Origin: Escherichia coli | Lineage (GTDB): Bacteria; Pseudomonadota; Gammaproteobacteria; Enterobacterales; Enterobacteriaceae | Reading direction: 5' to 3' (one strand) | Assembly: GCF_003334405.1 (NCBI RefSeq) | Contig: NZ_QOWM01000007.1 | Length of the DNA: 64,000 bases | Shown here: positions 12,772 to 12,787 of the stretch, in pieces | Layout of the letters: each line of letters opens with the position of its first letter | How positions within the stretch are numbered: the stretch's first letter is position 1 | The notes under the pieces: generated by a model | Database searches by the model: none | Seen by the model: only the letters and a program-made list of their open reading frames with translations | What the model was told of the DNA's origin: nothing | Position numbers and translations under genes: made by a program

Positions 12772-12787
12772 CTGTATTTATATACAG
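12772..12787 (-). promoter_or_regulatory. LexA operator (SOS box) CTGTATTTATATACAG upstream of dinD
   Basis: Perfect CTGT-N8-ACAG palindrome read directly at 12772..12787, 46-61 bp upstream of the dinD ATG. Confidence 0.75.

Follow-up and report, generated by a model that had tools for sequence, protein, structure and literature searches.

The stretch of DNA analyzed here (hereafter, the window) comprises 64 kb of E. coli sequence and carries dinD on its minus strand at positions 11902–12726, which encode a protein of 274 amino acids plus a stop codon. In the list of open reading frames, the ORF spans 12738 to 11902, whilst the annotated start is an ATG with its A at 12726. A second, in-frame ATG is located at 12738. 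A direct read of the minus strand reveals a Shine–Dalgarno sequence, GGAG, at 12733–12736, which is placed 6 nt before the annotated ATG and is overlapped by the ATG at 12738, and the annotated start is therefore favored. The ORF is intact, and its product is identical to K-12 DinD at 272 of 274 residues, which makes it a K-12-type “A” allele. It matches the NCBIfam equivalog NF008573 with a score of 483.5 bits (cut-off 242), in an alignment of residues 1–274 with profile positions 6–279 (of 288), and it contains a Pfam Bro-N domain at amino acids 10–105. The gene upstream of dinD, on the same strand, is yicC (12948–13811, minus strand), as assigned from the ORF list and from the RefSeq annotation of identical or near-identical loci. 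The overall gene order, ligB-yicG-dinD-yicC-rph-pyrE-slmA, agrees with that of RefSeq-annotated E. coli chromosomes, and a 361-nt query covering the region matched strain L73 at 100% identity and K-12 derivatives at 98.3%.

The spacer between yicC and dinD contains a 20-bp LexA operator (SOS box), which reads AACTGTATATAAATACAGTT in the dinD sense and occupies 12770–12789 on the minus strand. We are highly confident that this sequence is the LexA operator of the SOS gene dinD. Its core is a 16-mer with the pattern CTGT-N8-ACAG, located at 12772–12787, which reads CTGTATTTATATACAG on the plus strand and CTGTATATAAATACAG in the dinD sense, in which the 20-mer runs from 12789 to 12770. It is the sole occurrence of this pattern in the window. 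The initial annotation had placed the 16-mer 46–61 bp upstream of the dinD start, and both its location and its distance from the ATG at 12726 were borne out by a direct read of the sequence; 43 bp lie between the 20-mer and the ATG. The same annotation had called the box “perfect”. This description holds for the CTGT and ACAG arms, which enclose a spacer that is entirely A/T, but not for the site as a whole, which departs from the 16-bp consensus at one position and from the 20-bp consensus at three. Since the operator lies beyond the 3′ end of yicC, it is not a control site for yicC.

To score the site, we used the Berg–von Hippel heterology index (HI), with a matrix built from 17 other published E. 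coli boxes and with dinD excluded so as to avoid circularity. This calculation, which the initial annotation had proposed as a check, gave an HI of 2.95 for the dinD box (2.14 with dinD in the matrix) and 12.07 for the next distinct site in the window.

Predicted promoter geometry and LexA control of dinD

A relaxed scan of the yicC–dinD spacer returned, as its best sigma-70-like pairing, a candidate −35 hexamer for dinD, TTGCCC (12817–12822, minus strand), followed after 18 bp by a candidate extended −10, TGaGATACT (12793–12801, minus strand). Together, these elements match 8 of 12 hexamer positions, and the candidate −10 ends 3 bp before the 20-bp operator. Based on the usual spacing from −10 to +1, the predicted +1 of dinD falls around 12786 ± 2, within the left arm of the box. 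With such a start, LexA on the operator would span approximately −4 to +17 and would be expected to occlude RNA polymerase. A stricter promoter and terminator scan of 12600–13000 found no site, with the candidate promoter falling below its threshold, and our search of the literature found no mapped transcription start or promoter description for dinD. We therefore infer the geometry of operator and promoter, and hence the steric mechanism, from the spacing of the candidate elements.

Between yicC and the promoter, folding of the minus strand predicts a terminator-like hairpin at 12883–12913, composed of AAAUGCCGC...GCGGCAUUU followed by UUUUC, with a fold energy of −12.4 kcal/mol (z = −3.0 relative to shuffled sequences). 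The terminator scan probably missed this hairpin because its loop is larger than the scan allows. As judged from its position, the hairpin would separate transcription of yicC from the dinD promoter.

E. coli encodes LexA, from a gene that lies outside the 64-kb window. In uninduced cells, a LexA dimer would be bound to the CTGT and ACAG half-sites of AACTGTATATAAATACAGTT and, with the box immediately downstream of, and probably across, the dinD transcription start, would block initiation. Given that the site is among the best consensus matches of the E. coli regulon, dinD is expected to be tightly repressed. Following DNA damage, RecA filaments on single-stranded DNA would stimulate self-cleavage of LexA, so that the operator would be vacated and dinD would be transcribed. 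The product would be DinD, a Bro-N-domain protein for which disassembly of postsynaptic RecA filaments has been reported in vitro. Nothing that we found contradicts the explanation of the site as a LexA operator.

The initial annotation considered the function of DinD to be poorly defined. That statement is partly dated, as passages of PMC4849656 and PMC10602874 cite the finding of Uranga et al. (2011) that DinD inhibits postsynaptic RecA filaments in vitro (for an older view of its role, see PMC2577331).

It is conceivable that the site serves mainly to block read-through from yicC, or to control a transcript on the opposite (plus) strand, rather than initiation at dinD. yicC is located upstream on the same strand and ends 158 bp from the operator, the dinD transcription start is a predicted one, and the box is nearly symmetric, with an HI of 4.78 when it is read on the plus strand. 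Against this idea, the terminator-like hairpin stands between yicC and the box, and a plausible extended −10 promoter ends immediately before the box. On the plus strand, the box faces only yicC antisense sequence, with no credible ORF or Rfam RNA, and a whole-window Rfam scan gave no match near the box. Furthermore, dinD itself is induced in a LexA-dependent manner in K-12. We therefore regard a primary role in read-through or plus-strand control as very improbable, and favor repression of dinD initiation by LexA.

The evidence for LexA control of dinD comes from K-12, in which the dinD SOS box is the same 20-mer, letter for letter (PMC3009722, Tables 4 and 7). LexA dependence of dinD was confirmed in K-12 by RT-qPCR using lexA(Def) and lexA(Ind−) strains (PMC3009722). 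Upon exposure to AZT, dinD was induced 9.8-fold, with a 12-fold dependence on LexA cleavage (as judged with lexA3), and its published HI, 2.2, ranks with the lowest values in the regulon (PMC11228462, Table 1). In response to ciprofloxacin, the dinD transcript increased to log2 4.2–4.5, and the protein increased as well (PMC11002266). dinD also appears among the genes with a known SOS box in PMC6590174, which for LexA binding refers to the original work of Lewis et al. (1994) and Fernandez de Henestrosa et al. (2000). Our search of the ChIP literature found no usable data on binding of LexA at dinD.

In the strain studied here, neither the box nor any of the 113 bp upstream of the ATG departs from the sequence of K-12, where dinD is LexA-dependent, and the view that the SOS-regulated architecture is preserved is thereby upheld. 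The initial annotation had named a lack of SOS induction of dinD as the observation that would speak against its reading, and this point is already answered in the K-12 literature. The sequence of the operator and its identity to K-12 are direct observations, whilst LexA dependence and damage induction in the present strain would be carried over from the literature on the identical K-12 sequence. Based on this identity, the operator is real and is strongly inferred to be functional, but it is also ordinary and long known; what lies at this locus is the K-12 dinD operator itself, in another strain of E. coli. The two loci share the 20-mer, its spacing of 43 bp from the ATG, the 113 bp that precede the ATG, and the order yicG-dinD-yicC-rph-pyrE around dinD (also known as pcsA or orfY). 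They do not differ in operator or promoter; the differences are confined to 2 of 274 DinD residues and a small number of base changes farther upstream, close to the yicC terminator. As the strain keeps the dinD regulatory region of K-12 unchanged, SOS reporters based on dinD, and expectations derived from K-12, should carry over to it.

The dinD box also resembles the operators of umuDC, sbmC, recN, and tisB/istR-2, all of which share the CTGT-N8-ACAG pattern, an all-A/T spacer, and a low HI; published values are 1.8 for tisB, 2.1 for umuD, 2.2 for dinD, 2.8 for sbmC, and 3.5 for recN (PMC11228462). Unlike other high-affinity operators, dinD has a single box, with outer bases AA...TT rather than TA...TA.

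An operator that is intact could nevertheless be inactive in this strain, as a result of changes elsewhere, such as in the promoter or in lexA. lexA is not within the window, and natural disruptions do occur in the species (for example, the IS element in the box of strain A20 and the dinD pseudogenes described below). However, given the intact ORF and the near identity to K-12 of both the upstream region and DinD (113 bp and 272 of 274 residues, respectively), we attach next to no weight to this scenario.

Distinctness from chance and conservation of the operator

The bare CTGT-N8-ACAG pattern was found once in the window against an expectation of 0.53 per 64 kb, and 39 of 100 shuffled sequences contained at least one copy. 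The core by itself is thus within chance, whereas the full site is beyond it. The 20-mer lies within three mismatches of TACTG(TA)5CAGTA, and sites of this quality were present in none of the 100 shuffles. Over the 127,962 positions scored in the window, the mean HI was 36.0, and the same leave-one-out matrix gives proven operators values between 0.6 and 12.8, so that the dinD box, at 2.95, falls within their range. Among 400 first-order Markov simulations of 64 kb, none reached a value of 2.95; their best sites had a mean HI of 10.96 and a minimum of 5.81.

Next in rank among LexA-like 20-mers in the window is CTCTGCATTTTTACCCAGTT (13516–13535, plus strand; HI 12.07), which is located within the yicC coding region. 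It is within the range of chance, given the simulated average for the best site, and is conserved simply as coding sequence.

Conservation of the operator was observed directly. Using the 45-bp stretch around the box as a megablast query, we found a match in at least 3,388 of 5,426 complete E. coli genomes, with at least 3,164 of these matching at ≥99% identity; both counts are lower bounds, as copies with a SNP near the center escape a query of 45 nt. We then compared haplotypes at 11 inspected loci, which represent 9 haplotypes. The sole change in the box is a T>C substitution at spacer position 14, which gives AACTGTATATAAACACAGTT, with an HI of 3.32 and both arms intact. The candidate −35 and −10 are invariant. 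Approximately 10.8% of the other intergenic columns are variable, with one cluster of them immediately downstream of the box. Taken together, the box and promoter elements contain 1 variable column in 35, compared to ~3.8 expected at the flanking rate, which is a conservation footprint in the right direction, but a statistically weak one with only 9 haplotypes.

That the site is a chance palindrome in AT-rich intergenic DNA, with no regulatory role, is suggested only by the frequency of the bare pattern and the base composition of such DNA, and is already effectively refuted by the simulations, by the identity of the site to an experimentally characterized K-12 operator, and by the invariance of both arms across divergent E. 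coli lineages in which the bases just downstream vary.

The gene and its operator share a fate in two strains. In HH45, dinD has decayed through frameshifts and stops (positions 3150–4030 of locus L003), as has its box, which now reads AACTGTAGAAAATTAATGTT with an HI of 15.5; the haplotype occurs only once in the 5,426 genomes. EC21Z-147 lacks dinD altogether, with yicC directly next to yicG, and has no box, the best HI being 16.2 (L020, 15921–16171). The box is still intact upstream of the dinD pseudogene of ETEC L7, which carries a frameshift and a stop (L002, 2735–3557), and upstream of the dinD of GPEC403-625, which has an internal deletion (L019, 15791–16068).

A different event was seen in strain A20, where a 1,316-bp element of the ISL3 family is inserted exactly in the AT-rich middle of the box (L018, 3664–5007; equivalent to 12776–12783 of the window). 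The insertion is flanked by an 8-bp target duplication, ATATAAAT, and has destroyed the operator and split dinD from its promoter. In both A20 and STEC639, foreign DNA is joined at the 3′ end of yicC, and in A20 it includes ImmA/IrrE and PerC genes.

dinD as a presence/absence unit and its homologues on mobile elements

Together with its terminator, promoter, and operator, dinD constitutes a presence/absence unit of ~1.16 kb (approximately 11790–12947 of the window). A query comprising the promoter and 5′ region of dinD had no match in 719 of 5,426 complete E. coli genomes, and a query extending from the 3′ end of dinD to yicG failed to reach 80% coverage in 753, such that ~13% of complete genomes (719–753 of 5,426) are without the unit.

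Where dinD is present, it occurs as two alleles, which we compared on loci L013, L006, L008, L009, L011, and L012. They differ only in a 74-residue cassette located inside the Bro-N domain (residues 12–85; window 12472–12693, minus strand), within which types A and B share 47% amino acid identity, compared to 100% and 98% on either side. Type A, found in the window and in K-12, is carried by at least 1,657 complete genomes and type B by ~2,809, and the box is kept in both classes, with the same operator in each. Because numerous matches end 32 nt into dinD, we considered whether most E. coli might carry a dinD pseudogene. This idea was rejected, since the break marks the boundary of the second allele, which is mostly intact; dinD is a pseudogene in some copies only, such as those of ETEC L7 and HH45.

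Type B is closer than type A to the homologues from Klebsiella and Thiothrix. The Klebsiella pneumoniae strain 176 homologue (70.6% identity) occupies another locus than in E. coli, between ibpB and a transporter gene (L005, 2501–3304). Homologues on mobile elements show 48–64% identity to DinD. In streptococcal satellite phages, such as Javan19, the homologue adjoins the integrase (L015, 3968–4933); on Zymomonas plasmids, such as pZM36, it is found among toxin-antitoxin genes (L014, 4848–6176); and on a Thiothrix plasmid, it follows parAB and precedes genes for a DEAD/DEAH helicase and a SWIM zinc-finger protein (L016, 8980–9822). We also considered LexA control as a trait of the DinD family as a whole, and discarded it. 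The K. pneumoniae homologue is interrupted by an in-frame stop and lacks a LexA box (best HI 14.0), and the Thiothrix plasmid homologue likewise has no box (best HI 13.2).

With respect to protein families, residues 2–274 of DinD match the PADLOC defense candidate PDC-S13 (PDLC04919) with E = 8e-120. This match shows only that DinD-like proteins have been nominated as defense candidates. As regards a defense island, dinD lies between the housekeeping genes yicG and yicC, with no neighboring defense genes in the window, and our literature search found no paper that mentions PDC-S13. DinD also matches the N-terminal 267 positions of the 717-position Type I restriction model “Specificity_I” (E = 3.9e-113), which suggests that DinD-like domains occur fused to HsdS proteins, and it matches PHROG 8036, a family of unknown function.

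Based on the ~13% absence, the swapped Bro-N cassette, the matches to PDC-S13 and the Type I specificity model, and the satellite-phage homologues, one could propose that dinD and its LexA operator form an accessory unit of ~1.16 kb derived from a mobile element or defense island, rather than a core SOS repair function. We consider this proposal unlikely, although not negligibly so. If it were correct, LexA-gated DinD might act in conflicts between the host and phages or other mobile elements, for example, by sensing or blocking an invader that triggers the SOS response; in that case, its in vitro effect on RecA filaments would represent only a single aspect of what DinD does, and the Bro-N alleles would differ in the targets that they recognize. 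The side observations are compatible with a role in mobile-element conflict, but we hold such a role to be doubtful. The presence or absence of the unit, the existence of two Bro-N alleles under one operator, and the defense match are of modest interest for the biology of DinD.

Expression that is gated by a repressor and released upon DNA damage is also the logic of LexA-controlled prophage antirepressors. Like the LexA-controlled Bro-N or antirepressor genes of prophages and satellites, dinD encodes a Bro-N protein with homologues on mobile elements. To our knowledge, DinD has no known antirepressor activity. Unlike the prophage genes, dinD in E. coli is a solitary chromosomal gene flanked by housekeeping genes, and the window shows no phage genes next to it. 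The likeness, for which we also draw on PMC3121763, would be one of resemblance, and not of membership.

During the database searches, several records drew our attention for other reasons. MG065686.1 and MG065691.1, deposited as “Campylobacter phage A18a/A11a” (~174 kb), encode a protein that shares 99.3% identity with E. coli DinD; these unannotated records seem to include E. coli DNA as a result of contamination or misassembly. The 5.37-Mb record of K. pneumoniae 176 is labeled a plasmid, but is clearly a chromosome, and the same applies to the E. coli records NZ_CP141089.1 and NZ_OL790696.1. Lastly, the only Rfam match in the window is a JUMPstart RNA element (RF01707, 53.1 bits) at 22268–22306 on the plus strand, which is presumably located in the leader of the waa/rfa LPS core operon that is seen in related loci.
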